The notes: generated by a model not told the origin, from the letters alone. A stretch of 64,000 nucleotides of DNA from a virus (IMGVR_UViG_3300048848_000007:6411-70410), one strand, 5' to 3'; positions 316-13,772 are shown, counted from the first letter of the stretch. A program made the numbers and translations.

Positions 316-963
316 ATGGGTAGTATGATCAAGCTGTTTGGCAACATCACCGCACACGGTGTCGAGTACAAACTCCCCGACAAACCCCCTTCTGAACTGG
401 TCTGGGTTGACCCCAAAGGCCATGTGAACTGCTGGTGCTCGGTACTGGGTGGCACATCCGGTTCCAGCTCCAGTCCTCGGACCGAGTTCCGTGAAACCAT
501 CAACGAGTTCTCCAGTGATAAATACAACTGGATCGTGGATGGCAAGACTACACATACCCTCGCAGGCACTGTCCGTGTCGAGCTGGCTCCGTCCAGTGGC
601 AAGGTCATCGTCGGTCAGATCCATGCCCACCTTGCTGGCAATCCATTCCTGATGGTGACCTGGTGGAACGGGTACATCCGTGTGGACATGCGCTTCAAGC
701 CTGATGGCGATGCCGTCAACGTACTCAAGCTGGCCTGCCCACTGAGCAAGTCCTTCAAGTACCTGATCACCATCAGCCCTGAAGGGATCATCCACATCAA
801 CCTGAACGGTGAAACCTTCACCACCAACGTGGACACAGCGTGGAAGGCTTGCCCCTTCTATTACAAGTTCGGTGCGTACTGCATCGACCATGAAGGTCCA
901 GCTGAAGAAGGTGCGTGGGTCGTCTACGAAGACTTTGCGGCGTTGCACGATGAAGCAGCTTAA
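316..963 (+). CDS. Polysaccharide lyase family 7 (alginate lyase-like)
   Basis: Has the three PL7 signature regions in order: SPRTEFRE, GQIHAH and YYKFGAY. No signal peptide seen. Confidence 0.85.
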   Translation: MGSMIKLFGNITAHGVEYKLPDKPPSELVWVDPKGHVNCWCSVLGGTSGSSSSPRTEFRETINEFSSDKYNWIVDGKTTHTLAGTVRVELAPSSGKVIVGQIHAHLAGNPFLMVTWWNGYIRVDMRFKPDGDAVNVLKLACPLSKSFKYLITISPEGIIHINLNGETFTTNVDTAWKACPFYYKFGAYCIDHEGPAEEGAWVVYEDFAALHDEAA

Positions 964-1219
964 CCAAGGGCAGCGGTTCACAACCGATCCCTTGGAGGCG
1001 ATTCGCACGGCGTTCCACGTGGAACAATCCGATGTTGGTCTGACCCAAGGCATGTACTTGGGCCAGCACGACTACACCTTTCAGGCCGACGACGTAGGCC
1101 GTTTGGTCGAGGTTGTTCAAGACATGTCCCCCGGATTTCTTTCGTGGGGGTTTGGGTCTGTGTTTGCAGACCTGCGTCAGCAATACCCCGATCCCAAACC
1201 TTATGTAGTCGAGGTATGA
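950..1219 (+). CDS. Hypothetical protein (89 aa)
   Basis: ATG at 950 (MKQLNQ...) overlaps the end of the lyase gene; trimmed from the 809 ORF. Confidence 0.65.
   Translation: MKQLNQGQRFTTDPLEAIRTAFHVEQSDVGLTQGMYLGQHDYTFQADDVGRLVEVVQDMSPGFLSWGFGSVFADLRQQYPDPKPYVVEV
1011..1026. promoter_or_regulatory. parS: parS-like centromere site (CGTTCCACGTGGAACA)
   Basis: Perfect 14-bp palindrome GTTCCACGTGGAAC, matching the bacterial chromosomal parS consensus. Lies inside a CDS. Confidence 0.7.
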
Positions 1220-1222
1220 CCC

Positions 1223-1597
1223 ATGTCGCTGTTCCCCTTGGTTCCCGATGACCTGATTGAGCGTAGGAATCAAATCCTCCTGCGTATCCATCGGTTCGTT
1301 GAAGTACGGGACTTAGGCTTCGTCTTGGACGATAAGCCCAGCCCCTGCCACATCTGGACTGGTGGCGATTCTGGCAACGGTCGAGGCGGTGGCTATGGCC
1401 GTGTCTCCATCAATGGGGAAACAGCGGCTGTTCACCGTGTCGTCTACACCCATTTCTATGGGTATGTCCCTACAAAGAAACAGATCGATCACAAGTGCAA
1501 CAACCGCTTGTGCTGCAATCCTGCCCATCTTGAGATGGTCAGCCATCTCAAGAATCAGCGGCTCCGTGCGAAGCGAGCCAGGGAAACCAGAGCATGA
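1223..1597 (+). CDS. HNH endonuclease
   Basis: VHRVVY...IDHKCNNRLCCNPAHL...N motif. Confidence 0.9.
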   Translation: MSLFPLVPDDLIERRNQILLRIHRFVEVRDLGFVLDDKPSPCHIWTGGDSGNGRGGGYGRVSINGETAAVHRVVYTHFYGYVPTKKQIDHKCNNRLCCNPAHLEMVSHLKNQRLRAKRARETRA

Positions 1598-1899
1598 ATA
1601 CTGAATGCACTGAAGAGATGTATGAGGCGTTCAAAGAGGTGATGCGTGGTCCTAGCGCAGACACTGAGACTTACGCTGATCTGGTGAAAAATGCCATTGA
1701 AGCCGCACTTCGGGTGAAAGCTCGGGATGAACTGGAAATCCTTGGCTACACCCGAGAGGGCAAGCCGATCCATCCAATCAAACCAGGCATGATCGCCACT
1801 GCCTGCACCATCGTGTGTGCTGGCTGCCGGACAACCATCCGTGGCATGGGTGGCCCGATGCAAGGTGCCGTCTGCGTCCAATGCTGGGAGAAGAAGTGA
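1594..1899 (+). CDS. Hypothetical protein with C-terminal CxxC...CxxC (putative zinc ribbon)
   Basis: CAGC and CVQC motifs; overlapping start and stop codons with neighbours. Confidence 0.7.
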   Translation: MNTECTEEMYEAFKEVMRGPSADTETYADLVKNAIEAALRVKARDELEILGYTREGKPIHPIKPGMIATACTIVCAGCRTTIRGMGGPMQGAVCVQCWEKK

Positions 1900-2393
1900 T
1901 GAACCAAGAGAAGAAATTCGACTTCGAGCATATCGACGTCAAGCTGTACCTGGCGTTGAGAAAAGTCACAGCAGAGTATCAAGTGGTGGTTAACGGCCCT
2001 GAATTCTCTGGCTCTGGTGACTGGGTGATGATCAAACAGTGTGAAGATGCACTGGAAGAATTCGAGCTGTCCCACGGTCCACTGCCTGACTGGGCTGTTG
2101 CCCGTAACTGGGCCTACGAACTGGTGCCCGGTGCTCAGCTGATGACCAAAGACGGTCGTGTCACTGGCAATGCCCACATCTTACGATGCCATCCAAAAGA
2201 GTCCGGTCTTGAGTTGAGACCACTCTACGACTGCATCACTGATGCCGGTTCGTACATCCATGGATTCAGTGAAGCTGAAATTCACAATCAATTCTGGATT
2301 GGTGATTACGTCTCCGATCCACAAACCCTCATCGCCCGTTTCGGCAACCATGGCGAAGACTACGGAGTTCGGCAAAATGACTCAGTTCAGTGA
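1899..2393 (+). CDS. Hypothetical protein (164 aa)
   Basis: ATG at 1899 overlaps the previous stop (TGATG). Confidence 0.7.
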   Translation: MNQEKKFDFEHIDVKLYLALRKVTAEYQVVVNGPEFSGSGDWVMIKQCEDALEEFELSHGPLPDWAVARNWAYELVPGAQLMTKDGRVTGNAHILRCHPKESGLELRPLYDCITDAGSYIHGFSEAEIHNQFWIGDYVSDPQTLIARFGNHGEDYGVRQNDSVQ

Positions 2394-3018
2394 ATTCGGT
2401 GCTCGCCAGCGTTCCTACAAGCTGGTGCTCGATTACCTGCTCCAGTTCGGTATGACCAAGCTGGTCGAGAACGAAGACAGCGAGTACCCCAGAACCACTG
2501 GCGGACTCGTAGGATTCAGTCTGGGATCGTTTTCCAAGTCGGCTGTTAAGCCAGGTGACCTGGTTTTGCTGACCAGTGCCCATGCTGATAAGTGGCGTCT
2601 GAGCTGGCTCGTAGAGATGCTGCCCAACGAGATCTACCGCTGCGAGTCCCTGATAGACGGCGAGTTGGCTGACTGGTCCAACGTCGGCATCAGCTACTTT
2701 CATCGGCCCACAGTGGAACAACACCCCAACTGGAAGTGGACTGATGCTCAGCATGAGTTCTCTGACCGTTGGTTCGAGGCTGCCCGCAAGTGCGATGAGT
2801 ACATGTGGCGTCCCTGCTTACCTGACTTTCAGGAAGACGGATCTGTTGTTGTGGGGGTTCGGATGCGTCATGGCATGGGGGATTCCCCTCGTCCAACCAT
2901 CACCCTGCACCGCTGGAAAGCACTCACTGAGCGAATGCTCATCAACCGTTTCCGTGCCTTGGAGAAGACTGCCGAGGAACAATGGAAAGCTCACTGCGAG
3001 GCACGTAAAAATGTCTGA
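2377..3018 (+). CDS. Hypothetical protein (213 aa)
   Basis: Start MTQFSEF, coupled to the upstream gene; codon usage like its neighbours. Confidence 0.7.
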   Translation: MTQFSEFGARQRSYKLVLDYLLQFGMTKLVENEDSEYPRTTGGLVGFSLGSFSKSAVKPGDLVLLTSAHADKWRLSWLVEMLPNEIYRCESLIDGELADWSNVGISYFHRPTVEQHPNWKWTDAQHEFSDRWFEAARKCDEYMWRPCLPDFQEDGSVVVGVRMRHGMGDSPRPTITLHRWKALTERMLINRFRALEKTAEEQWKAHCEARKNV

Positions 3019-3397
3019 CCGTACCCCTACAACTGATGCCCTCGAAACCTTGGGCATGATCCACTTCAAGCCTGAAGCTCGTGATGCCATTCACCTTGCG
3101 GTGGATGCAGTGAAAGCAGGTTGTAATCTGTGTGCCGGTGAACGTATCGGCATCATTGACGGGGTTGCATGGCCTATCAATAAATTGATGGGGCATGAGC
3201 CGCCCAATGGCCATTTGACCTACAAAGTCCCGTATCACGGAATAGTCGATCCGTTCCTGCCAACCAAACGGTTGGGTGATACAGATATGACCTATAGCGT
3301 GCTGGAAGGTGAATCCTTCTGGTTCGTTATGGCTCCACGCATGGTCAAGAGCCTGCGTCATGTCTGGGAGCATCCTGATTTCCCGGAGGGTAAGTGA
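3011..3397 (+). CDS. Conserved N4-like hypothetical protein (gp22-like)
   Basis: DALETLG...RDAIHLAV...GIVDPFL...SLRHVWEHP pattern, recalled from N4-like phages upstream of the AAA ATPase. Confidence 0.7.
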   Translation: MSDRTPTTDALETLGMIHFKPEARDAIHLAVDAVKAGCNLCAGERIGIIDGVAWPINKLMGHEPPNGHLTYKVPYHGIVDPFLPTKRLGDTDMTYSVLEGESFWFVMAPRMVKSLRHVWEHPDFPEGK

Positions 3398-3750
3398 TGG
3401 AACATCCCTACCCACTGGAAGAACATGATGTTCGCTGTATGTGCGGTGATCCGGTGGCTCTGGCCTATGCCTGGATCAAAGGCTATGCCGAGAACCTCAA
3501 TGCCCTGTGCGGTGATCCAGACGACGAAGATGACGAATACTACGGTAGCGTTACCGTGGATGAGCTGCTGGAAGTTGCTGATAGCCAACAACCTCAAAGC
3601 GGTCATCGTTGGGGTGGTGACTACCTCTCCCGTGGTGGTGCTTTTGAAGGCTTATCCGTCGATCCCACCTTCTGGAAACACTACGCCGTGTTCCGGGGCA
3701 TCCCTGAAGACAAAGTGGAAGAAGCTCATTTCTTCTCCTGCTCCTGCTGA
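3394..3750 (+). CDS. Hypothetical protein
   Basis: Acidic 118-aa ORF ending CSC; start overlaps the previous stop. Confidence 0.7.
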   Translation: MMEHPYPLEEHDVRCMCGDPVALAYAWIKGYAENLNALCGDPDDEDDEYYGSVTVDELLEVADSQQPQSGHRWGGDYLSRGGAFEGLSVDPTFWKHYAVFRGIPEDKVEEAHFFSCSC

Positions 3751-3758
3751 GGCAAGCC

Positions 3759-4109
3759 ATGTCTGAACAGAAAATCACCATCGGCCTGATGGGGAGTCTG
3801 GTAAAGCCAATCCCTGACGGTCACAGAAATCCTCTCTGGGATGATATTCAAGATCGGCTGAACAAGGTCGATCTGGAGATCAACTACGAAGGCACGCTGA
3901 TCTATAGTCTGGAAATTCATAAAGACGCCTACGACTTCGACGGCCTGTCCATCGGCAACCCGGCCAACCCGGACGACTTCGTTCGTCTGTGTGCTGATCA
4001 GCTGATGCCCGTTTCACCTCACACCGTCGAGCCGTACTTCGCTCACTGGTACAACGGTGCAGACAGCCCAATGTCCACGCTGGAACTCGAAGAGTTCATG
4101 AAAACCTGA
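3759..4109 (+). CDS. Hypothetical protein
   Basis: 116-aa ORF with an upstream GAGG; followed by the parS site and a terminator. Confidence 0.7.
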   Translation: MSEQKITIGLMGSLVKPIPDGHRNPLWDDIQDRLNKVDLEINYEGTLIYSLEIHKDAYDFDGLSIGNPANPDDFVRLCADQLMPVSPHTVEPYFAHWYNGADSPMSTLELEEFMKT

Positions 4110-4110
4110 G

Positions 4111-4126
4111 TGTTTCACGTGGAACA
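4111..4126. promoter_or_regulatory. parS: parS-like centromere site (TGTTTCACGTGGAACA)
   Basis: Full 16-bp match to TGTTYCACGTGRAACA. Intergenic, immediately after a stop codon and before a terminator. Confidence 0.8.
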
Positions 4127-4127
4127 T

Positions 4128-4161
4128 AAAAATCCCCCATCGGAAACGGTGGGGGATTTTT
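4128..4161 (+). terminator. Rho-independent terminator (possibly bidirectional)
   Basis: AAAAATCCCCCATCG-GAAA-CGGTGGGGGATTTTT. Confidence 0.85.
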
Positions 4162-4192
4162 ATTTGGATATCAATTACTTATGGAGTTTCCC

Positions 4193-5233
4193 ATGGAACA
4201 GAACCTGTATCGTAGCACCCCGAGGAAGATCAGGGAGTACGTCCGGGACTGCATGTATGCAGGTCTGGTGCCGTATGTTCACTCTTCGCCGGGGATGGGC
4301 AAGTCAGCCATCATGGCCTCCCTGGCTAAAGAGCTGGACCTGAAGCTGATCGACCATCGTCTGTCCACTTCAGCCCCTGAAGACCTTTCCGGTCTGCCCC
4401 GTTTTCGTGAAGACGGCACTGCCGAATTCGCCCCGTTCGCTGACCTGTTCCCGCTGACCACTACTGCGATGCCGGAAGACAAGCAAGGCTGGATGCTCTT
4501 TCTCGATGAGTTCCCGTCTGCTTCCAAGTCGGTACAGGCCGCAGCCTACAAGCTGATCCTCGACAAGATGGTCGGCCAGCATAAGCTCCACGAGAACCTG
4601 TGCATTACGGCTGCCGGTAACCTGATGACCGACCGGGCCATCGTCAATCCGATCGGCACTGCCATGCAGAGCCGGGTAGTCCATCTGGAAATGGAACTCA
4701 GCTTTGATGAGTGGCTGTATGACGTGGCTCTGAAAGAGAACTACGACAGCCGGGTCATTGCTTACCTGTCCCAGTACCCGTCCAAGCTGATGGACTTCAA
4801 GCCCGACCACAACGAGAAGACCTTCTGCTGCCCTCGTACCTGGGAGTTCATGGAACGGCTGGTGCGAACCAAGGGGATGATCAAGGACGCTGACACGGCT
4901 CTGTACGCTGGCACCATCACCAGTGGTGTAGCAGCTGACTTCGTGCAGTTCACTCAGGTCTACGCCAACATCGTCAAGATCCCGGACATCCTCCGTGATC
5001 CTGCTGGCTGCTACCTGCCACAAGACGCCAACACTCGCTGGGCCACCATCTCTTCGATGATGGAACACGTGAACGAGAAGAACTTCGGTCCCATGTCCGA
5101 GTACGCCAATCGTTTCGATATGGCCTTCCGTATCCTGTTCTACCGCTCGGTGATGGTCCGTCAACCTGACCTGCGTACTCATGCTCCCTTCCGGGATGCC
5201 ATGTCCACCTTGTCCAAATACCTGCATGGGTGA
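4193..5233 (+). CDS. AAA+ ATPase (N4 gp24-like, MoxR-type)
   Basis: Walker A SSPGMGKS; Walker B LFLDEF. Confidence 0.9.
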   Translation: MEQNLYRSTPRKIREYVRDCMYAGLVPYVHSSPGMGKSAIMASLAKELDLKLIDHRLSTSAPEDLSGLPRFREDGTAEFAPFADLFPLTTTAMPEDKQGWMLFLDEFPSASKSVQAAAYKLILDKMVGQHKLHENLCITAAGNLMTDRAIVNPIGTAMQSRVVHLEMELSFDEWLYDVALKENYDSRVIAYLSQYPSKLMDFKPDHNEKTFCCPRTWEFMERLVRTKGMIKDADTALYAGTITSGVAADFVQFTQVYANIVKIPDILRDPAGCYLPQDANTRWATISSMMEHVNEKNFGPMSEYANRFDMAFRILFYRSVMVRQPDLRTHAPFRDAMSTLSKYLHG

Positions 5234-5236
5234 TCT

Positions 5237-6373
5237 ATGAACACACTGCCCGTTATCGATGAGTTCGAGCTGACCCGAGACTTTGACCGAACCAAGTCAA
5301 AGCTCTTCATCGGCAGCAATGCTGCGTTCTTCGGCTCTATCCTGTGCTCCATGGAGTTCATCTGGATGCCGGAGATCCCGACTGCTTGCACGGACGGTGT
5401 GTTCCTCGGCTGGAATCCTTACTGGTTCCTGAAGCTCCCCAAGAACACCCGTGTCACCGTGCTCATGCACGAGATCTGGCACGTAGGCCGTCTGCACGGA
5501 TTACGTCGTGGCACTCGTGACCCTGAATACTGGAATTACGCCTGCGATATCTGGATCAACAACCAGCTGGAGAAGGAGAAGTATTCGTTCGAGACAGTCG
5601 AAGACTGCTGGAAGAATCCCTACTACCTCGGCTGGGTGGAGGAAGACATCTACGATGATCTGGTCAAAAACCAGATACCTCCGCCTCCCGGTGGAACATG
5701 GGGGATGGGTGACTGTGACCTGAAGGAACCAAACGGGGATACTCAGGCCAAGAACCTCAACACCGTGGTCAAGGCTCTGCACACGGCCAAGGCCAGTGGT
5801 GCAGGCAGTCTGCCGGGTGACACCGAGATCATCATCAGGAAATTCCTGGAGCCTGTGGTTCCGTGGAACATCCTGCTGCTGGGCTTCTTCAACGACCTGC
5901 TCGATGAAGACTACACATGGGCCAGACCTAATCGCAGACACTCCGATATCTACCTGCCATCCCGTTTCACGGATGACGGTCGGTTGGAGCACCTGTGCTA
6001 CTACCTCGATGTGTCTGGTTCGATCAGCCGTCAGGATGTGATCCGCTTCAACTCTGAAGTCAAACACATCTGGGAGACGTTCAAGCCCCTCAAGCTGACC
6101 ATGATCCTGTTCGATACAGAGATCCAAAAGACCATCCAGTTCACGGAAGGGGACTTGTTCAACGAGATCCAGGTGACTGCTGGGGGCGGTACGTCCTTCA
6201 TCTGTGTGCGTGAGCACATGATGGAGACTCGGCCGACAGCTGCCATCATCTTCACGGATCTGGACTGTACCCCCATGTGTCCGCTTGATTACGATGTGCC
6301 CGTCATCTGGGTGGCAACTCGTGCAACAGGCCGGACAGTCCCTTTTGGCAAACTCATTCACATCAGGAAGTAG
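5237..6373 (+). CDS. Metallopeptidase-like plus vWA domain protein (N4 gp25-like)
   Basis: HEIWH zinc motif; MIDAS-like DVSGS; GGGT; adjacent to the AAA ATPase. Confidence 0.88.
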   Translation: MNTLPVIDEFELTRDFDRTKSKLFIGSNAAFFGSILCSMEFIWMPEIPTACTDGVFLGWNPYWFLKLPKNTRVTVLMHEIWHVGRLHGLRRGTRDPEYWNYACDIWINNQLEKEKYSFETVEDCWKNPYYLGWVEEDIYDDLVKNQIPPPPGGTWGMGDCDLKEPNGDTQAKNLNTVVKALHTAKASGAGSLPGDTEIIIRKFLEPVVPWNILLLGFFNDLLDEDYTWARPNRRHSDIYLPSRFTDDGRLEHLCYYLDVSGSISRQDVIRFNSEVKHIWETFKPLKLTMILFDTEIQKTIQFTEGDLFNEIQVTAGGGTSFICVREHMMETRPTAAIIFTDLDCTPMCPLDYDVPVIWVATRATGRTVPFGKLIHIRK

Positions 6374-6376
6374 TAC

Positions 6377-6880
6377 ATGGTCATCAACGGCAAGACGCTA
6401 TACGAGCTGGCCCCAATCAAGAACATGATCGCTGGCAAGGACACCGCCCATGGCACCAGCTATGGGCTGGGTGAAGCTGGCTACGATATCCGCATCAAGC
6501 AAGAGATCCGGTTTAAGCCCCAGCATCTACGTAATGGCATCACCAAGTTCGTACACGAAGTAGACGGATGGGGTAACCCCGGACGCTTCTGTCTGGCCTC
6601 GGCCATCGAAGAATTCGAGATGCCGTACAACCTGACCGGCATCGTCCACGACAAGTCCACTTGGGCACGTCGTGGCCTGTCAGTCTTCAACACCGTCATC
6701 GAACCGGGCTGGTCCGGTTTCCTGACTCTGGAGCTGGTCTACCAAGGGGAAGGTGAACTCCTTATCCCTGCTGGTTCAGGCATCGCTCAGGTCATGTTCC
6801 ACGAGCTGTCGGACGAGGCGGCCTACAACGGCAAGTACCAGAACCAGAAAGACAAGCCAGTCCCTGCCAAGAAATCCTGA
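6377..6880 (+). CDS. dcd: dCTP deaminase (N4 gp26-like)
   Basis: AGYDIR, DKSTWARRGL, VIEPGWSGFLTLEL, IAQVMF, YNGKYQNQ motifs. Confidence 0.92.
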   Translation: MVINGKTLYELAPIKNMIAGKDTAHGTSYGLGEAGYDIRIKQEIRFKPQHLRNGITKFVHEVDGWGNPGRFCLASAIEEFEMPYNLTGIVHDKSTWARRGLSVFNTVIEPGWSGFLTLELVYQGEGELLIPAGSGIAQVMFHELSDEAAYNGKYQNQKDKPVPAKKS

Positions 6881-6958
6881 TTGTTTTCTTGGATTGAAAA
6901 ACCCCTGAATCAAATAGGTAGTCGCTGCCTTTTCAGCGACATTACTGGAGAAGTACCC

Positions 6959-7171
6959 ATGGCATTTACCAAACTGAAATCTGGCGGTCAGCGTGTTCGT
7001 GTCGATCTGGCGAAGGTGGTTTACTTCACCGAGCTGGAAAGCGGCAGCACCTCGCTCAGCTTCATCAACGGCGACACTCTGGTCGTCGAAGAATCCTTCC
7101 AGACCGTCAGCAACCGTGCCAACGGTTCGGGCGAAGTGACCGCTGCTGTCTCGGTCGCTGAAGGCGCGTAA
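6959..7171 (+). CDS. Small hypothetical protein (FlbD-like beta pattern)
   Basis: GGAG Shine-Dalgarno; FTKL...VDLAKVVYF...TSLSFINGDTLVVEESF resembles the FlbD-like small-protein pattern. Confidence 0.6.
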   Translation: MAFTKLKSGGQRVRVDLAKVVYFTELESGSTSLSFINGDTLVVEESFQTVSNRANGSGEVTAAVSVAEGA

Positions 7172-7190
7172 GATTCCTGCCGGAACGCCT

Positions 7191-7450
7191 GGTCACCGTA
7201 AGTGACCCCGATGCACCTGTGCTGATTCACAGGCTGCATTGGTCAGGTAGCAGAGCTGCTCGGAGCAATATCATTCACCCCATGTGTAAGCCCTGCAATG
7301 CGCAGGCTTGTGGTAAGTAAGCTCAGAGCTGAAATGGTGATCTATGGTTTGTGGTTCGATTCCACTCGCTGGCAGTCAGGGGGACGCCCTGTGCTGCTAC
7401 CTGAACCAATGCAGCTTTCCCAATGAGAGAACTCCGGTTCTCTCTTTTTT
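7191..7450 (+). ncRNA. Putative structured ncRNA with a long closing stem and a tRNA-like T-arm
   Basis: 7233-7253 pairs with 7394-7415 (21 bp, one bulge). Internal hairpins include GTGG-TTCGATT-CCAC (7351-7365). Ends in a terminator. No plausible + strand ORF. Confidence 0.6.
7425..7450 (+). terminator. Rho-independent terminator
   Basis: GAGAGAAC-TCCG-GTTCTCTC followed by T6. Confidence 0.85.
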
Positions 7451-7732
7451 ATCGAGCCGGTTGGGAATGGCTGACTAGCGAAGGCGAAGCCGGAGTCTGT
7501 CTGGCATTCACGACTGGCCGCTGCCGCAGGCGACGTTCAGCTGACCCACTGCGGTGTGCCATGAGATACATAGAAGGGATGAGTTTCACCCCTATGTAAA
7601 TCAATGACTTAGACAGGGGGGTTCGTTCATCTGGATGAACACACCCCTGTTCAAATCCGAGTGCTATATCAGCCTGTATGTGCGCTATGCTATTCATGCT
7701 GTTCACTATCTCACAGACGTAGAGACACCATC
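7451..7732. other. Putative plasmid-type origin/operator region upstream of rep
   Basis: Non-coding; imperfect inverted repeats at 7569-7596 and 7613-7650; sits directly upstream of a Rep homologue. Confidence 0.45.
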
Positions 7733-8224
7733 ATGAGCGACCAGAAACCTGTGCGGTATCACCAATCCCCGGTACGGGGTACATGGGTTCAGACTGAGCG
7801 TGCAGGCCATGAGGCATGGGCAGCACTCACTCAGGCAAGCCCCAAGGCTGCCCAGCTGATGCACGTGCTCGTTGCCAACATGGATGAGAAGGGTGCCTTG
7901 GTGACCAGTCACAAGGTCTTGGCAGAGCTGTGCAGCGTGTCGGTCATGACCATACGCCGTGCAGTCGATACCCTGACCAAGCTCAATTTCATCCAGACCA
8001 TTCGCATCGGCAGTGAACGGGGTGGTGCCTTGGCCTACATCGTCAACAGCCGTATCGCATGGGCGGACAAGCGAGCCAACATCCGCTACGCCAAATTCAG
8101 TGCCACCGTGCTGGTATCGTCTGAAGAACAGAACGTCCTCGACGGTCCCCCACTCCGTCAGATCCCCCGCATTCAGGTCGAAGAAGACCTGGAACAGACT
8201 CTTGAGTTAACCGCAGTGCAATAA
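7733..8224 (+). CDS. rep: Plasmid replication initiator protein, pBBR1 Rep-like (winged HTH)
   Basis: GTWVQTERAGHEAWAAL...LMHVLVANM...HTH...AYIVNSRIAW...FSATVLV...LRQIP parallels pBBR1 Rep as recalled (GHWVQTERKAHEAWAGL...AYVVNDRVAW...FSAAVVV...LRRIP). Confidence 0.82.
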   Translation: MSDQKPVRYHQSPVRGTWVQTERAGHEAWAALTQASPKAAQLMHVLVANMDEKGALVTSHKVLAELCSVSVMTIRRAVDTLTKLNFIQTIRIGSERGGALAYIVNSRIAWADKRANIRYAKFSATVLVSSEEQNVLDGPPLRQIPRIQVEEDLEQTLELTAVQ

Positions 8225-8232
8225 GGTGAGCC

Positions 8233-8421
8233 GTGAGTAATGAAGTAAGAGAAGTCTGGGAAGACGCCTACAGTCGTGGCGTCGTTGCCCGCAATGAAAA
8301 CCGCCCCAAGGTTCAACCCAAATCCTTTAACAAGAACTTCTATTACTGGCTCGCCGGATGGAATGACCGTGACATGGAATTGGAGAACCAAGGGATCAAC
8401 GAGGAATGCAGTAATGGTTGA
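8233..8421 (+). CDS. Rmf-like small protein
   Basis: AYSRG...P...WLAGW pattern parallels ribosome modulation factor (AYQRG...CP...WLGGW). Confidence 0.5.
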   Translation: MSNEVREVWEDAYSRGVVARNENRPKVQPKSFNKNFYYWLAGWNDRDMELENQGINEECSNG

Positions 8422-8608
8422 TACCCATGAAGTCTTGCAGTTCACCTATACCAACCATCGTGGCGAAACAGCGAAGCGTCGTGTGATGCCCGAGCGTATC
8501 TACTTCGGTACTACGCCTGATCATCCTCAACCTACTTGGTTGATGACGTCCTACTGCTTCGACCGTCAGGCGCAACGCACCTTCGATCTGAAGAAAATGG
8601 TGTTCTGA
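8414..8608 (+). CDS. Stand-alone WYL-domain protein (64 aa)
   Basis: FTYTNHRGETAKRRVMPERIYFG...WLMTSYCFDRQAQRTFDL follows the WYL-domain pattern; no HTH. Confidence 0.72.
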   Translation: MVDTHEVLQFTYTNHRGETAKRRVMPERIYFGTTPDHPQPTWLMTSYCFDRQAQRTFDLKKMVF

Positions 8609-9144
8609 TGAAGAAGCCGATGACGTTGCCCAGCTGGATGACGAAAGTTATCAAGCCGGGGCATATCACCCAAAGCTCCATGGATGCAGGCCATCTCGTT
8701 CTTCTGTTGGCTCTGAGCCTGCGACTTCACGACAGTGCCGATGAGATCCGTGATCTGTGCCGTCGTGTGCAACCTCAAGTGCCGATGGGCATGGTGCCCA
8801 ACATGAAGCGTCTGGCTCGTGAGCCGGATGACGAGAAGGTCTTCGAGGCTGCCCTGCTGATCATCAACAAGGGCTGCATGAAGATGGGCATAGCACCGGA
8901 TGTGGTCTTTGTCCGCAACGATGCTGAACCAGAGAAACCACCCTTCCTCACCGAAGATGAAGTCATGGACCAGCTCAAGGTCATGGCTGCCGAGATCTCT
9001 GATGCAACCACCTTGGCCCGTCTGATTAATGAGATGGTCGATAACGTGCCCGAGCATATGAAGGGCGCACTCTATGTTGTGGCGGGGTCCAAGAACCCCC
9101 GTGCCACTATTCACGCTGCTGTAAGGGATTATCAATATGGCTGA
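8608..9144 (+). CDS. Hypothetical protein (178 aa)
   Basis: TGATG coupling with the WYL gene. Confidence 0.7.
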   Translation: MKKPMTLPSWMTKVIKPGHITQSSMDAGHLVLLLALSLRLHDSADEIRDLCRRVQPQVPMGMVPNMKRLAREPDDEKVFEAALLIINKGCMKMGIAPDVVFVRNDAEPEKPPFLTEDEVMDQLKVMAAEISDATTLARLINEMVDNVPEHMKGALYVVAGSKNPRATIHAAVRDYQYG

Positions 9145-9385
9145 GAAATCCGTTGTTGAAGAATTGCAGTCTCGCAACGAGCGTCAACGCAAGACCATTG
9201 TCGAGCTGACCCAAGAGGCCAGAAACGCAGTTGCCAAGATCAAGGAAATCCAGATCTGGGAACGGTTCGCCGGTTACATGCTGGACAACTGCGAAGGTCA
9301 GACGGTCACTGAAGAGAACCTTCAGTTCTGGTTGTCCGAGATGCTGAGAAAGGAAGCTGAAGCCCTCAAAGGGGTGAAGGCATGA
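9137..9385 (+). CDS. Hypothetical coiled-coil protein
   Basis: 82-aa ORF overlapping both neighbours. Confidence 0.7.
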   Translation: MAEKSVVEELQSRNERQRKTIVELTQEARNAVAKIKEIQIWERFAGYMLDNCEGQTVTEENLQFWLSEMLRKEAEALKGVKA

Positions 9386-9876
9386 ACCTCTCCCGGCAGA
9401 GTCAGCTGCTGCAAAGCCAGTCCTCGCTGGCAAAGAAAGTCTTCGATGTGGTGCCGATCCAGGATGCCTGGTCGTGCAACTACATCCTCAGTGAGCTGAC
9501 CAAAGCCACTGGCAGCAGTCCCACCATCCATGCGGTACGTGCCTGTCTGGGCGACCTTGAGGACAATGGTCTGGTCAAACAGACCAACAACCGCTTTCAA
9601 CGAATCGCCGTCAAGGCTCAAAAGGTGACTTCCATGTCCGAGATTGCCCAATTGGTTCCTAAAGCTGAACCAACGAAAGAAGATACCTTCAGCCTGCTGG
9701 CGGACCTCTCCGCTGAGATGGTCGATCTGGGCAAGGATATGGTCACTCGCATGACCTCCATTTCTCAGCGTCTGGAACAGATAGCTCTGTCGGTCGAGAC
9801 TGAGCGTAAAGACAACGCTCAGGCTGCCGAGAAGCTCAAGCAGTTGCAGACCTTGCTCAAAGGTCTGACAGACTGA
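9382..9876 (+). CDS. Hypothetical protein (possible winged helix plus coiled coil)
   Basis: 164-aa ORF; VRACLGDLEDNGLV helix-wing pattern and a C-terminal heptad region. Confidence 0.65.
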   Translation: MNLSRQSQLLQSQSSLAKKVFDVVPIQDAWSCNYILSELTKATGSSPTIHAVRACLGDLEDNGLVKQTNNRFQRIAVKAQKVTSMSEIAQLVPKAEPTKEDTFSLLADLSAEMVDLGKDMVTRMTSISQRLEQIALSVETERKDNAQAAEKLKQLQTLLKGLTD

Positions 9877-9939
9877 TCAGCTTGTCTTGGGGGTGAGTGA
9901 CCCCTAAGATCCCCGCCCCATCCATGAAGGAATAGACTC

Positions 9940-10374
9940 ATGTGCAGTAAATGTGATGCCCGTCGCGTAGCCGTCATCTCCACCATCGCCGCTCTGGGCC
10001 AGAGTCTGGCTGAAACCGCCAAGATCCTGTACGACATCAACGCCAATAAAGAAATGGCATTGGTGCTGGATCGTGTACGTGAAGTGTTCGATCTGGACCC
10101 TGATCGGGTGTTCCTCGACGAGAACTACGATCTGCAAGCCAAGCCGAACGACGAGCAGGTAACCGATGCACGCACTGAAGGTCAAACCTCCGGTTCTGCA
10201 TCCTTCGCCGAAAAGCTCTCTGAGCTGCTGGGCGAGATGGTTGGCGATCAGCCAAAGCAACCCGAATACTTCTTCGTCACACCGCCCGGTGCGACCAAGG
10301 CAGAAGTGGATTACATGCTGGGTTACATTGCTGAAAAGCAGGGTATTGCAGTAAGTGATATCAAAGTGGTTTAA
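9940..10374 (+). CDS. Hypothetical protein
   Basis: 144-aa ORF with an AGGA Shine-Dalgarno. Confidence 0.7.
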   Translation: MCSKCDARRVAVISTIAALGQSLAETAKILYDINANKEMALVLDRVREVFDLDPDRVFLDENYDLQAKPNDEQVTDARTEGQTSGSASFAEKLSELLGEMVGDQPKQPEYFFVTPPGATKAEVDYMLGYIAEKQGIAVSDIKVV

Positions 10375-10420
10375 TATCTCCGCCTTGATACACCTCTGCT
10401 CTAGCCGCCGCTGCACCACA

Positions 10421-10444
10421 AAACCCCTCTTCGGAGGGGTTTTT
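10421..10444 (+). terminator. Rho-independent terminator
   Basis: AAACCCCTC-TTCG-GAGGGGTTTTT. Confidence 0.85.
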
Positions 10445-10481
10445 CTTTGCCTGAATTTCCTACAGCAAGATGGACCCTCCG

Positions 10482-11210
10482 ATGAAAGCAGTTTACGAAA
10501 ACCACTACCTCACCGACCGTGACGTAGCCAACTTTGCTCGCCATTCGTTTGCCGATCTGGCCGACAACTTCACCGAAGCCCAGAACAACAACCTGATCAA
10601 GTTTCTTGCCCGTGGCATGAAGACCAGTGATTGGGATGGGCTGATTGCCAAAATGCTGTTCGGCCTGCATGAGTCTTCGGCTCAGGATCTGGCTCGCTAC
10701 CTGCGTAAGATCCCGTGTCACTGGGTGCCATTCGGTCATCCACACATCTCGCTTCGCATGTCCGCCCCGGTGCCGATCCGTACCCAGTGCTTCAAGCACA
10801 AAATCGGCTTCGTGGAATCGGAAGAGTCTCGTCGCTACATCAAGTCCCGGCCTGTGCTGTTCATCCCTGACCAGTTCCGTGCCGTGGCTGAAGACGTGAA
10901 GCAAGGCAGCGGCGGTACTCACTCAGGCAGCACCTTCTGGCGTGATACCTACATCTCCCAGTGCAATCACATGATCGATCTCTACATGGAGATGATCGAT
11001 GAAGGCATCTGCCCTGAGCAGGCTCGCCTGGTACTGCCACAAGGTGTGGAAGTGAACTGGGTCTGGACTGGTTCGCTGTACGCCTTCGCAATGGCCTACA
11101 ACGCCCGCAGCGAGGCCCACGCCCAGAAAGAAGTACAGGATCTGTTCGCTGAAGTGGACCAGATCATCGCTCCACTGTTTCCTGTCTCTTGGGCAGCTCT
11201 CACCGAGTAA
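10482..11210 (+). CDS. thyX: Flavin-dependent thymidylate synthase
   Basis: PFGHPHISLR...KHKIGF.ESEESRRY...EQARLVLP...WTGSL; alternative start at 10470. Confidence 0.9.
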   Translation: MKAVYENHYLTDRDVANFARHSFADLADNFTEAQNNNLIKFLARGMKTSDWDGLIAKMLFGLHESSAQDLARYLRKIPCHWVPFGHPHISLRMSAPVPIRTQCFKHKIGFVESEESRRYIKSRPVLFIPDQFRAVAEDVKQGSGGTHSGSTFWRDTYISQCNHMIDLYMEMIDEGICPEQARLVLPQGVEVNWVWTGSLYAFAMAYNARSEAHAQKEVQDLFAEVDQIIAPLFPVSWAALTE

Positions 11211-11236
11211 CCCTTGATCGGTTTTTGTGGTCGTTC

Positions 11237-11266
11237 GCCCCTGTCAGAAATGGCAGGGGCATTTTT
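11237..11266 (+). terminator. Rho-independent terminator
   Basis: GCCCCTGTCA-GAAA-TGGCAGGGGC-ATTTTT. Confidence 0.8.
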
Positions 11267-11312
11267 ATGAACGCAATTCCACATTCAAAAGCCGAGCTTT
11301 AAGGAGTTCAAG

Positions 11313-13772
11313 ATGCAGGTTAGCCAAGTAGACGACCACCTCACACACGCTGTGATCGGTCAGCAAGAAACCGAAGAGATGGGCGTTGAAGACAGTGCTG
11401 CCCTGATGCACATCCTGTCCACCGGCCTGTACACCCACCCCAAGCTGGCAGTGGTTCGTGAGATCTGCTGCAACGGTTGGGACGGTCACATCTTCTCGAT
11501 GATTACCGATGTTCCGCTGCAAGTGGAACTGACCCAGACTCAGATGACCATCCGTGACTTCGGTCCGGGCATCCCCCATGCCAAGATCCGCTCGGTCTAT
11601 GGCACCTACGGCAAGTCCACCAAACGTGACGACTCCAAGTCCACAGGTGGCTTCGGTCTGGGTTCCAAGGCTCCGTTTGCCTACATCGACAGCTTTGAAG
11701 TTGTCTCCCGGCATGACGGTGTGAAGACCGTGTACCGTGTCTCCAAGTCCTCCATGGCCTTGGGTGGCAAGCCTTCAATCAACAAGATCGTGGCCGTGCC
11801 CACCGACGAGACAGGCATCTCGGTGACCTTCGATATCAAGCCGGGTGATTACCCAGCTTTCGAGCGTCACCTCAAGGAAGTCGCCATGCTGGGCGAGATC
11901 CCCATGGTACTGAACCAAGGGGAACAACTGCCCATGCTGCCCCTGATGGACTCGCCGACCGGCTACATGATCAACGAGTTCAAGGGCACGCTCACCGATA
12001 CCATCAACGTCCGTTACGGCAACGTGGTGTACCCGATCCCTCGGCATGAAAAGTATGACGAGCAGTACAGCTACATCCTTCGCAAGCTCGAAGGCATGGG
12101 CTGGCAGACCCGGATTACCTTTCTGGCTCCACCGGACAGCATCTCGATTGCCCCCAGTCGAGAGGCCATCATCCTTTCGGATGCGACGGTCAAGACCATC
12201 GATACGCTGCTGCGTAGCTTCGACGGTAAAGAGCTGAAGCGTGGGGATGAGACGGGCAAGCAGGTCATCAGCCATCTGGTGAATGAAACTCTGCATCAAG
12301 AGCCTGTAGCCGAGAAGATGTGGCAGGTCTTCAAATCCATCGAGGTGTCCTCGAAGGGCAAGCTGCCAGGCATCATGCACCCGGCAGGCATGTTCTCTTA
12401 CACTCTGCGTAAAGCCCGACTGCACCACATCATCCTGAACGCGAGTAGCAACGTGAACATCGATGAGGTGTACATCAAGCGTTTGCACAAGCTGGCGTAC
12501 AGCGGGCGTGTACCGCAGAAGTTCATGCTCGAAATCCTGAAGACGCTCCGTCGTACCGGGCAAAAGCAGGTAATGGTGCGGGGTGACATCAAGCAACAGT
12601 CCCTGCTGCATAAATCCCTGCACCGGCACGTCACTCTTCCTATCCGTCTCGCAGTGGCAAGCGAAGAGAAGCTGACCATGGACCGAGTGTTCTACACCGA
12701 TACCTGGGGGCGTTCCCATACGCCCAATCTGGTGAACCCACGGCAGCTGCGGATACGCAGCGTAGAGGAAGTTGTAGCCTTTGGCTTCAAGCGTGTGCTG
12801 TTGGCACGCAACAAGACACTGATCAACGACTTCTTCGATGGGTTGCACCGCCAGGCCCACAACCAAGGGGACTACAGCCGTACTTCAGCCCATGGCTGGG
12901 TGGTGTATCTGGTTCCGGCTCATGAGCCGACTCAGGACATTATCCGGGAAGCCTTCACAAAGCTCGGTTACGAGATTCATGAGCGTATCCCTGCCCGTGT
13001 GATACGAACCAAGGAGATCGATCCTAACGCTCCGGTGGCTGTGAAAAAGCCTGCCAAAAAACGGAAGACGATGATCTCTCTGACTCAGGCTTACAACGCT
13101 CGGGCTAGTCATTGGTTGCTCAATACCGGACGGGAAGTCAATCACAAAGAACCTGAGAAGGGTGTACTCGATCCTGTTGCCTTCGCTGTGCTCAACAGCA
13201 AATCAGACTACCCGTACCAATTCCACGGTCTGGGCACTGAGAAGTGCAGGATCATTACCCAGATCTGGGGCGATCAAATCGCTGTAGTCACTTCAGTTCA
13301 AGCCGAAGTATTGAAAGCCAAAGGAATCCCCGACGTGAAAGCTTTTGTATTCAACCATGCAGATAAAACCCTGTCGGCCAAACAAGACTTCCGTCGTTAT
13401 TTGGCTTTCAAGGCCCAAGGTGCTGGCAAAGAATCCTTGGAAAACAAAGTCATCAACCAGCTTTGTGTTCACGAAGACCTGATGAAAGAACTGGGCCTGC
13501 GTTTCGCTATCAGTGCAGAAACTGCACTGCTGGTGACGTTCTACGAGAACCTTGATCACTGGAATGATCGAGAAAAAATGCCCCTGTGTGACGCGATCAA
13601 GGCGAAGGTGAAGCCTTCTCCGAAGTATCAGGAAACCGTCGCCAAGTTGCACAACTCCCCGTGGGCCAAGTACATCAAGTTGGGCGTACTTGCCGTGGAA
13701 CTGGAAAGTGTCATCCCAAACAGTGCGGAAGCTGAGCTGCCGTACACCATCCTCCGCAACCTCCTGAAGTAA
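11313..13772 (+). CDS. rIIA: rIIA-like protein (N-terminal GHKL/HATPase)
   Basis: LYTHPKLAVVREICCNGWD, RDFGPGI, GKSTK, GGFGLGSKAPFAY. Confidence 0.92.
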   Translation: MQVSQVDDHLTHAVIGQQETEEMGVEDSAALMHILSTGLYTHPKLAVVREICCNGWDGHIFSMITDVPLQVELTQTQMTIRDFGPGIPHAKIRSVYGTYGKSTKRDDSKSTGGFGLGSKAPFAYIDSFEVVSRHDGVKTVYRVSKSSMALGGKPSINKIVAVPTDETGISVTFDIKPGDYPAFERHLKEVAMLGEIPMVLNQGEQLPMLPLMDSPTGYMINEFKGTLTDTINVRYGNVVYPIPRHEKYDEQYSYILRKLEGMGWQTRITFLAPPDSISIAPSREAIILSDATVKTIDTLLRSFDGKELKRGDETGKQVISHLVNETLHQEPVAEKMWQVFKSIEVSSKGKLPGIMHPAGMFSYTLRKARLHHIILNASSNVNIDEVYIKRLHKLAYSGRVPQKFMLEILKTLRRTGQKQVMVRGDIKQQSLLHKSLHRHVTLPIRLAVASEEKLTMDRVFYTDTWGRSHTPNLVNPRQLRIRSVEEVVAFGFKRVLLARNKTLINDFFDGLHRQAHNQGDYSRTSAHGWVVYLVPAHEPTQDIIREAFTKLGYEIHERIPARVIRTKEIDPNAPVAVKKPAKKRKTMISLTQAYNARASHWLLNTGREVNHKEPEKGVLDPVAFAVLNSKSDYPYQFHGLGTEKCRIITQIWGDQIAVVTSVQAEVLKAKGIPDVKAFVFNHADKTLSAKQDFRRYLAFKAQGAGKESLENKVINQLCVHEDLMKELGLRFAISAETALLVTFYENLDHWNDREKMPLCDAIKAKVKPSPKYQETVAKLHNSPWAKYIKLGVLAVELESVIPNSAEAELPYTILRNLLK

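Follow-up and report, generated by a model that had tools for sequence, protein, structure and literature searches.

A shortened IncP-9-type replicon and two host-type parS sites in the genome of an uncultivated N4-like phage

The lytic Bacillus phage phi29 carries five host-type parS sites and no partition proteins, and the host protein Spo0J segregates its quiescent genome and accounts for its entrapment in the spore (PMC2731898). crAssphage (Carjivirus communis), a podovirus long regarded as virulent, carries repL and has been proposed to be a phage-plasmid (PMC11652158). Among plasmids, pWW0 is the archetype of the IncP-9 group, with the order res-oriV-rep, and pBBR1 is a distant relative that roots IncP-9 trees (PMC2885752, PMC6614342). 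The N4-like phage Ab09 forms pseudolysogens in Pseudomonas aeruginosa that last for many passages, for which no genetic basis is known (PMC6467409). N4-like phages (Schitoviridae) are otherwise treated as strictly virulent, and they are used or proposed for phage therapy and for biocontrol of Pseudomonas and other bacteria. Here we analysed a stretch of 64,000 nucleotides (the window) from an uncultivated N4-like phage, corresponding to bases 6411-70410 of a 75,312-bp IMG/VR virus genome rated complete (IMGVR_UViG_3300048848_000007), and compared a short rep-origin cassette and two parS sites in it with these systems. All positions are those of the window.

The comparison set consisted of 27 other complete or near-complete N4-like genomes (~2 Mb), or 28 including this phage. 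Among these 28 genomes the replicon and the host-type centromere are each unique to this phage, yet they co-occur there and lie close together, which is the main argument for plasmid-like persistence. We consider episomal persistence with the help of the host ParABS system the best single reading of the locus, with a probability of roughly 0.4.

A plasmid-type replicon in an N4-like genome

The phage is N4-like. An open reading frame (ORF) for a giant virion RNA polymerase of 3545 aa matches phrog_2206 with E = 0, and an N4-type major head protein, portal and DNA polymerase are also encoded, so that a complete phage gene set is found together with a plasmid rep gene. The small early and middle genes have homologues only in the Pseudomonas and Erwinia N4-like phages Zuri, Littlefix, Arace01, Meara, phCDa and UCB24, with synteny and homologues common to the Schitoviridae phages Zuri and Littlefix and the related phages Arace01 and Meara. 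The phage is a distinct lineage; for its DUF2201 protein, no relative in IMG/VR exceeds 55% identity. The phage relatives and the Rep family both point to Pseudomonas as the host. The initial annotation, made from the sequence alone, had proposed an N4-like phage with a T-loop RNA ending in a terminator, a palindrome-rich non-coding region with a rep gene, a placement of this block between dcd and thyX, and two parS sites at 1011 and 4111. All of these were recovered at the positions given in Table 1, and homology of both Rep and oriV to the IncP-9 family identifies rep with its upstream non-coding DNA as a genuine fragment of a plasmid-type replicon.

The automatic gene call for rep covered only 121 aa, and the conserved N-terminus supports a start at 7733 instead. 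Rep stayed below threshold against the helix-turn-helix (HTH) families of Pfam and matched several PHROG families of 'replication initiation protein' weakly. In a tblastn search of 72,556 plasmids, homologues were found in 258 records, the best of them Pseudomonas plasmids, with identities of 67% to Rep of pAd12 (P. fragi) and 59% to those of pWW0, pJUPA4018 and many others. The plasmid homologue is often the first gene in its record and annotated rep, and the weaker hits are small plasmids whose gene is annotated RepL. In species genomes the family is almost entirely confined to Pseudomonas and Azotobacter. Phage databases gave few relatives: a distant match of 32% in Burkholderia phage FLC5 was the sole one among 50,697 phage records, IMG/VR yielded none with the single protein as query and four with the family alignment (none of them N4-like), and rep was absent from the 27 other N4-like genomes. 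The pBBR1-type assignment made initially therefore stands at the level of the superfamily and gives way at the level of the family: Rep is IncP-9-like, and its nearest relatives are found on Pseudomonas phages, phage-plasmids and plasmids rather than on pBBR1 itself.

The closest Reps in a search of 5.8 billion proteins lie on two phage contigs, with identities of 77-78% by BLASTP and 71% in MAFFT alignments. One of these, the 70,378-bp ENA contig L030, is siphovirus-like, with PolA, helicase, DUF2201, ThyX, nucleotide kinase, tail-tip, tail and lysis genes; its 77%-identical Rep is encoded at 10001-10546 and has as its neighbour a ParA-family ATPase, at 11605-12243 on the minus strand. The other, G023 (the same as L163, and also seen as L032/L033), is an unrelated phage genome of 82,688 bp (contigs of 82.7-87.5 kb), 95% complete, whose head protein is not N4-like. 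Its rep gene (~10001-10459 of L032) encodes a Rep of 152 aa that has no C-terminal tail, and its origin measures 315 nt with ~4 iterons. The next-closest Reps (69-71%) are on the phage-plasmid-like contigs L034 and L035, which also carry ParA, DarA/DarB-like and tail genes. In a maximum-likelihood tree the Rep of the window grouped with that of G023 (100/94) and then with that of L030 (99/92). This group of phage Reps nests in a 21-member clade (99/99) that also holds conjugative plasmids of the pAd12 type and the phage-plasmids with ParA and tail genes, and the classical IncP-9 Reps form its sister group. IncP-9-like Reps are therefore widespread on phages and on contigs of the phage-plasmid kind.

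Rep is under purifying selection. The pairwise ratio of nonsynonymous to synonymous substitution rates (dN/dS) against its relatives was 0.09-0.13, with dS saturated, and no invariant column of the family is lost before about residue 146 (~nt 8170). Beyond that residue the phage protein has lost the C-terminal tail of the family. Tail-less Reps also occur naturally elsewhere (P0004, P0058 and P0077, of 152-153 aa), in at least four family members overall, so the tail may be dispensable. The Shine-Dalgarno sequence of rep is weak.

To describe the origin, nine replicons were compared (the phage, L030, L032, L034, L035, L036, pAd12, pJUPA4018 and pWW0). Their general layout begins with a hairpin, followed by a conserved box and an AT-richer spacer, the iterons, and two copies of a palindromic box, of which the second is just upstream of rep. 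The phage retains the hairpin intact, with an identity of 83-89% to IncP-9 origins and an invariant loop, GACTAGCG...AGTCTGTC. Of the 27 pairs predicted for the hairpin and a short GC stem next to it, 10 vary in a compensatory way among the nine replicons, and G-T pairs suggest that the + strand is functional. The hairpin is a candidate for a single-strand initiation signal or a small RNA, and no description of it was found in the literature searched. Homologous hairpin blocks were seen in L001, L002, L029, L030, L032 and L034-L036. The iterons of the family have the form GATGAAC-N8-GTTCATC and often abut as the palindrome GTTCATC-nn-GATGAAC; the iteron core of the phage matches that of pAd12-type replicons exactly. 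From the hairpin anchor to rep the phage has 260 nt, versus 315-458 nt in the eight relatives. No Rep boxes were found elsewhere in the phage genome, and no DnaA boxes in the origin at up to one mismatch. Krasowiak et al. (2006) reportedly found that the IncP-9 oriV has no strong DnaA boxes, that Rep recruits DnaA and that the block nearest rep is dispensable. Because the oriV keeps 75-89% identity to its relatives despite saturated synonymous sites in rep, the origin block must have been under selection.

On the left side of the cassette, homology to plasmids starts exactly after the T run of the terminator of a structured RNA, at 7451, where the plasmids show a short CTTT microhomology. From there 7451-7641 is 75% identical to the DNA upstream of rep in pAd12 and 83% in pWW0, and 7452-7540 is 89% identical to that of the pJUPA4018 group. 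On the right, homology stops inside the 3' end of rep at ~8170, so the acquired fragment measures ~720 bp, from 7451 to ~8170. This oriV-rep fragment of the IncP-9 family was inserted directly after the RNA terminator by illegitimate recombination, from a donor in the pool of Pseudomonas plasmids and phage-plasmids. In synteny with Arace01, the cassette fills a variable slot between the RNA and the WYL-like gene, and its location is a typical moron position. Base composition (GC content overall and at third codon positions, GC3) was uninformative for dating the transfer.

The insertion was also checked in independent Logan contigs of the same run. One contig covers 1-7810 of the window at a depth of 268 and another 7793-12000 at a depth of 286; because the cassette is joined to phage genes at each end on contigs of phage depth, an artefact of assembly is rejected. 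The one break in the Logan graph is at a 42-nt word of rep that also occurs in two contigs of lower depth. These two (Logan contigs 2 and 3; lengths 52 kb and 20 kb, depth ~21) represent a related IncP-9-like replicon in the same soil sample. The regions of the window that touch it are 7475-7538 and 7781-7822, the 42-nt rep word being exact, and it has 720 nt between the anchors where the phage has 279 nt. The donor may have been related to this replicon, or the replicon may share a host with the phage.

The structured RNA upstream of the cassette was initially counted as part of the plasmid module, and this did not hold. The DNA at 7174-7418 is 77-84% identical to non-coding DNA of Arace01 (77%), UCB24 and Meara, all of which are without rep, and 12 of the 44 predicted RNA pairs show compensatory changes across the four phages. 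Its acceptor-like stem is stacked on a covarying T-arm, whose stem reads GTGG/CCAC here, GGGG/CCCC in Arace01 and GCGG/CCGC in Meara and UCB24. The RNA is therefore a conserved feature of N4-like Pseudomonas and Erwinia phages and not plasmid-derived. We take its architecture to recall the tRNA-like modules of Y-RNA-like or tmRNA-type RNAs. ARAGORN found neither a tRNA nor a tmRNA there, and Rfam gave no match in 7170-7450 at E values up to 1. Other N4-like relatives have tRNA-like genes of 91-96 nt in roughly the region of the structured RNA (L006 10258-10348, L007 3455-3546, L011 11054-11149 and L016 10934-11028). These unusual genes lie 1.1-2 kb downstream of the DUF2201 gene, and the anticodon assigned to some of them has 4 or 2 nt. 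An alignment with these genes has the T-arm alone in common, and the RNA was not equated with them.

Two host-type parS sites and the neighbouring genes

Each of the two parS sites has a CACGTG core and is one position off the perfect P. aeruginosa site. Site 1 is a perfect 14-bp palindromic core with one mismatch at the outermost position, and the position of this mismatch resembles the high-affinity P. aeruginosa sites parS1 and parS4 (PMC4368675). Both sites are predicted to be high-affinity sites of the Pseudomonas host type. GTTYCACGTGRAAC has no further match in the 75,312-bp genome, where the chance expectation under a first-order Markov model is 1.6e-3 per genome and the probability of two or more is 1.3e-6. 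No perfect GTTYCACGTGRAAC occurs in the 27 other N4-like genomes, in which one-mismatch hits equal the reversed-pattern control. The match to the P. aeruginosa consensus, the small P value and the uniqueness among 28 genomes bear out the description of the sites as host-type. Perfect TGTTYCACGTGRAACA was found in at least 119 IMG/VR contigs (L041-L159), several of them with clusters of 2-5 sites; none of the 119 listed is similar to this phage, and thus none is N4-like in the part compared.

At site 1 the encoded residues are AFHVEQ, versus AFLVQE and AYVVEE in the Zuri and Littlefix homologues, and the codons are unrelated. The comparison of that gene with these two relatives argues for a lineage-specific change that the protein sequence did not force. 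Neither site arrived with the cassette, since no rep-bearing relative carries parS: none was found near rep in other rep-bearing elements. Site 2 lies 1 nt past a stop codon and before a terminator-like hairpin, which was read from the sequence, is also visible in a weak sub-threshold IMES-4 alignment and is not listed by a simple terminator scan. An IMES-4 RNA at 4109-4185 was rejected, with 32.6 bits against a gathering score of 48 and a match that consists of the parS site and the terminator. Import of site 2 and its flank from a bacterial chromosome was likewise rejected, as no exact 25-nt match exists in 185,579 species genomes.

The parS sites are 3.6 and 6.7 kb upstream of the origin, and the chance that two sites and the origin fall within 6.7 kb of a 75-kb genome is P = 0.024. 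Such clustering resembles the origin-proximal layout of parS in chromosomes. Six-frame Pfam searches found no integrase, ParA (CbiA/ParA) or ParB (ParB_N) in the whole genome, which extends what had been noted for the window; one sub-threshold HTH_3 hit lies outside the window. Phage-plasmids have a partition system of their own, whereas only host-type parS sites are present here.

Several neighbouring genes were also identified (Table 1). Among them is a 62-aa ORF directly after rep, which has no homologue at the same place in relatives. Its identity as a ribosome modulation factor (RMF) was considered and rejected, with E = 0.13 for Pfam RMF, 18 bits (E = 0.0016) against a cut-off of 40 in NCBIfam, and no hit in the Protein Data Bank (PDB). 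A real ribosome-hibernation factor beside the replicon would fit a theme of dormancy, and the evidence is too weak to claim one.

Table 1 Positions of the replicon, the parS sites and neighbouring features in the window
Feature	Position	Strand	Remarks
parS site 1	1011-1026		CGTTCCACGTGGAACA; inside an 89-aa gene at 950-1219
parS site 2	4111-4126		TGTTTCACGTGGAACA; intergenic, 1 nt past the stop of the ORF at 3759-4109
Terminator-like GC hairpin and T run	4131-4160	+	Immediately past parS site 2
Structured RNA conserved in N4-like phages	7233-7450	+	Closing stem of ~21 bp, acceptor-like stem, T-arm at 7351-7365, intrinsic terminator at 7425-7444
Shortened IncP-9-type oriV	7451-7732	+	Non-coding, with inverted repeats; 75-89% DNA identity to IncP-9-like plasmids
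Origin hairpin	7456-7518	+	63 nt; invariant loop with GCGAAGC mini-hairpin
Sole remaining Rep-box cluster	7616-7655		Palindrome GTTCATC-tg-GATGAAC and one 22-bp unit GATGAAC-N8-GTTCA
Palindromic box	7700-7716		Related to TGTTAGATATCTAACA; single copy here, two copies in related origins
rep	7733-8224	+	163 aa; small winged-helix initiator of the IncP-9/pBBR1 (RepL) family
dcd	6377-6880		Flanks the RNA-origin-rep block
thyX	10470-11210		Flanks the RNA-origin-rep block
PL7-type alginate lyase gene	316-963		Pfam Alginate_lyase2, E = 3e-29; among middle genes, far from tail genes
HNH_3 homing-endonuclease gene	1223-1597		E = 4e-17; directly downstream of the gene with parS site 1
62-aa ORF	8233-8421		Match to phrog_10492, E = 4e-8
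Small WYL-domain protein gene	8417-8608		E = 5e-5; in Arace01 the C-terminal part of a longer gene

Readings of the replicon and the parS pair

Episomal persistence would proceed as follows. If lytic development came to a halt, as it might in starved cells or during slow growth, the genome would circularise through its terminal repeats; Rep would bind its boxes and recruit the host replisome for low-level theta replication; and host ParB would load at the two parS sites, so that host ParA segregates the copies. ParB loading might also silence nearby middle genes. The outcome would be a stabilised pseudolysogenic or carrier state built on a replicon and a centromere, with no partition proteins encoded by the phage. 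In P. aeruginosa a single parS in combination with the cloned parAB operon makes an unstable plasmid stable, and ParB acts as a repressor of genes adjacent to parS (PMC4368675, PMC7022226). A more specific version, in which the phage is a facultative plasmid with a minimal kit made of the trimmed Rep-origin pair and two host-type centromeres, lacking any partition protein, integrase or classical repressor of its own, host ParB both segregating it and silencing middle genes, is put forward as a tentative proposal that we regard as doubtful. A genome that pairs a replicon with host-type centromeres offers a concrete and testable genetic route to the persistence of N4-like phages.

A number of observations weigh against persistence as an episome. 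The phage origin is more reduced than those of the eight relatives, with one full iteron unit versus 2-6 and two exact half-sites versus 5-7. The rep-proximal repeat block is deleted. The stretch between the two boxes is absent, and with it two iterons are gone and probably the native rep promoter. No sigma-70-like promoter for rep was found in a consensus scan of 3600-9000, and a strong terminator stands directly upstream of the cassette. In Rep, the Pro-rich C-terminal tail (QLPxG..PP.Q..L...LPDLP) is replaced by 18 unrelated residues. No repressor, integrase, toxin-antitoxin pair or other lysis/lysogeny switch was found, the one hint being the sub-threshold HTH_3 hit. The G023 genome, which carries the sister Rep, has no integrase, par genes or parS, so rep serves there without a centromere. 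The genome record carries a 127-bp 'terminal repeat', which from its length probably reflects the k-mer overlap of the assembler and then gives no information on physical ends or circular forms. Finally, the phage is known from one genome in one soil metagenome, with no isolate or carrier cell known.

The reduction of the origin could instead mean that the cassette helps the lytic cycle, the trimmed Rep-origin pair being an additional initiator, free of regulation, through which the host DnaA/DnaB/DnaG replisome is brought to phage DNA early in infection. Such a role would resemble that of the RepL lytic replicon of phage P1. Loss of iterons and tail would then remove copy-number control, which fits lost handcuffing, and parS would have another function, such as ParB/SMC-mediated positioning of replicating phage DNA. 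Membership of Rep in the RepL superfamily, its purifying selection, and the sister Rep of G023, tail-less and served by a short origin (315 nt) in a genome with neither par genes, parS nor integrase, are all consistent with such a role. We consider it unlikely, however, because N4-like phages encode their own polymerase, helicase and primase (the polymerase was shown here), 27 relatives manage with no rep, and no promoter is evident; it also leaves unexplained why the sole rep-bearing N4-like genome is the sole one with two perfect parS sites. That co-occurrence, and the clustering of rep with parS, also speaks against a view of the cassette as a decaying passenger, namely moron-like plasmid DNA that is eroding and dead for replication, with Rep at most a DNA-binding protein and the parS sites independent of it in their action, for example in titrating or relocating host ParB during infection. 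Loss of iterons and tail, the missing promoter and weak Shine-Dalgarno sequence, the CTTT microhomology at a left junction behind a terminator in a typical moron position, and the single known genome are what erosion would lead one to expect. The ORF is intact, though, with all invariant family residues and a dN/dS of ~0.1, the origin hairpin is fully preserved, and tail-less Reps recur in at least four family members, which makes decay quite unlikely.

The related replicon in the same soil (contigs of 52 kb and 20 kb at depth ~21), with its exact 42-nt stretch of rep in common, together with the identity of the iteron core to pAd12-type replicons, would suit a role in interference. Rep and its binding site in multiple copies could disturb resident IncP-9-like plasmids or phage-plasmids by incompatibility or titration, or the phage could exploit a resident Rep. 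This is an improbable account: a single binding site is a weak titrator, the parS sites are left unexplained, and there is no direct evidence of a common host. The same 42-nt word, at which the assembly graph branches inside rep into the plasmid contigs of lower depth, is the one feature expected of a chimera in which a plasmid-like stretch was joined to the phage by a common k-mer. Such a chimera is hardly credible, since both flanks are at phage depth (268 and 286 versus ~21), reaching 7810 from the left and starting at 7793 on the right, and the oriV and rep differ from those of the co-resident plasmid (279 nt versus 720 nt between anchors). Episomal persistence with borrowed ParABS functions is thus retained as the preferred reading, at the strength given above.

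Comparison with known systems

The minimal IncP-9 replicon (pM3, pWW0, NAH7) is like the phage cassette in its small winged-helix Rep, of ~185 aa there and with pWW0 Rep 59% identical to that of the phage, and in an oriV directly upstream of rep with palindromic Rep boxes and no DnaA boxes (PMC2885752). The phage copy differs in that it is borne by a phage and not by a conjugative plasmid, has no res gene, holds one iteron unit in place of an array, and has lost the rep-proximal block and the tail of Rep; its nearest relatives form a separate, partly phage-borne clade. IncP-9-family replication modules thus circulate among unrelated Pseudomonas phages, beyond plasmids.

The phage-plasmids P1, N15 and SSU5 and the contigs L034 and L035 likewise combine structural genes with a plasmid rep, which in L034 and L035 belongs to the same Rep family (69-71%). 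They differ from this phage in encoding their own ParA and its partner, and the family member L036 has an S24 repressor, whereas this phage has host-type parS only. Classical phage-plasmids carry a repressor switch. In P1, RepL is an initiator of the RepL superfamily for lytic replication, and its origin lies inside repL, under the control of C1; here the origin lies upstream of rep and is IncP-9-like.

Like phi29, this phage belongs to a group classed as lytic and carries several host-type parS sites with no partition proteins of its own. The use of host ParB through orphan parS sites in a lytic phage is already established for phi29 (PMC2731898). The differences are a Gram-negative, non-sporulating host, two sites in place of five, and the addition of a plasmid replicon; boxes comparable to the Spo0A boxes that keep phi29 silent were not found in this phage. 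crAssphage belongs to another phage order and has another host and another rep lineage, and the review of it mentions no host-type parS (PMC11652158).

If the module works, the phi29 strategy of borrowing host ParB would extend to Gram-negative hosts, and the boundary between lytic phages and phage-plasmids would be blurred. The prediction of phage lifestyle would also be affected, as such a phage would escape tools based on integrases, ParA or ParB. In the literature searched, we found no report of a plasmid replicon or of host-type parS in Schitoviridae. Each component has a precedent, in the IncP-9 replicons, the orphan parS sites of phi29 and the repL of crAssphage, and it is their combination, and the lineage in which it occurs, that is new.

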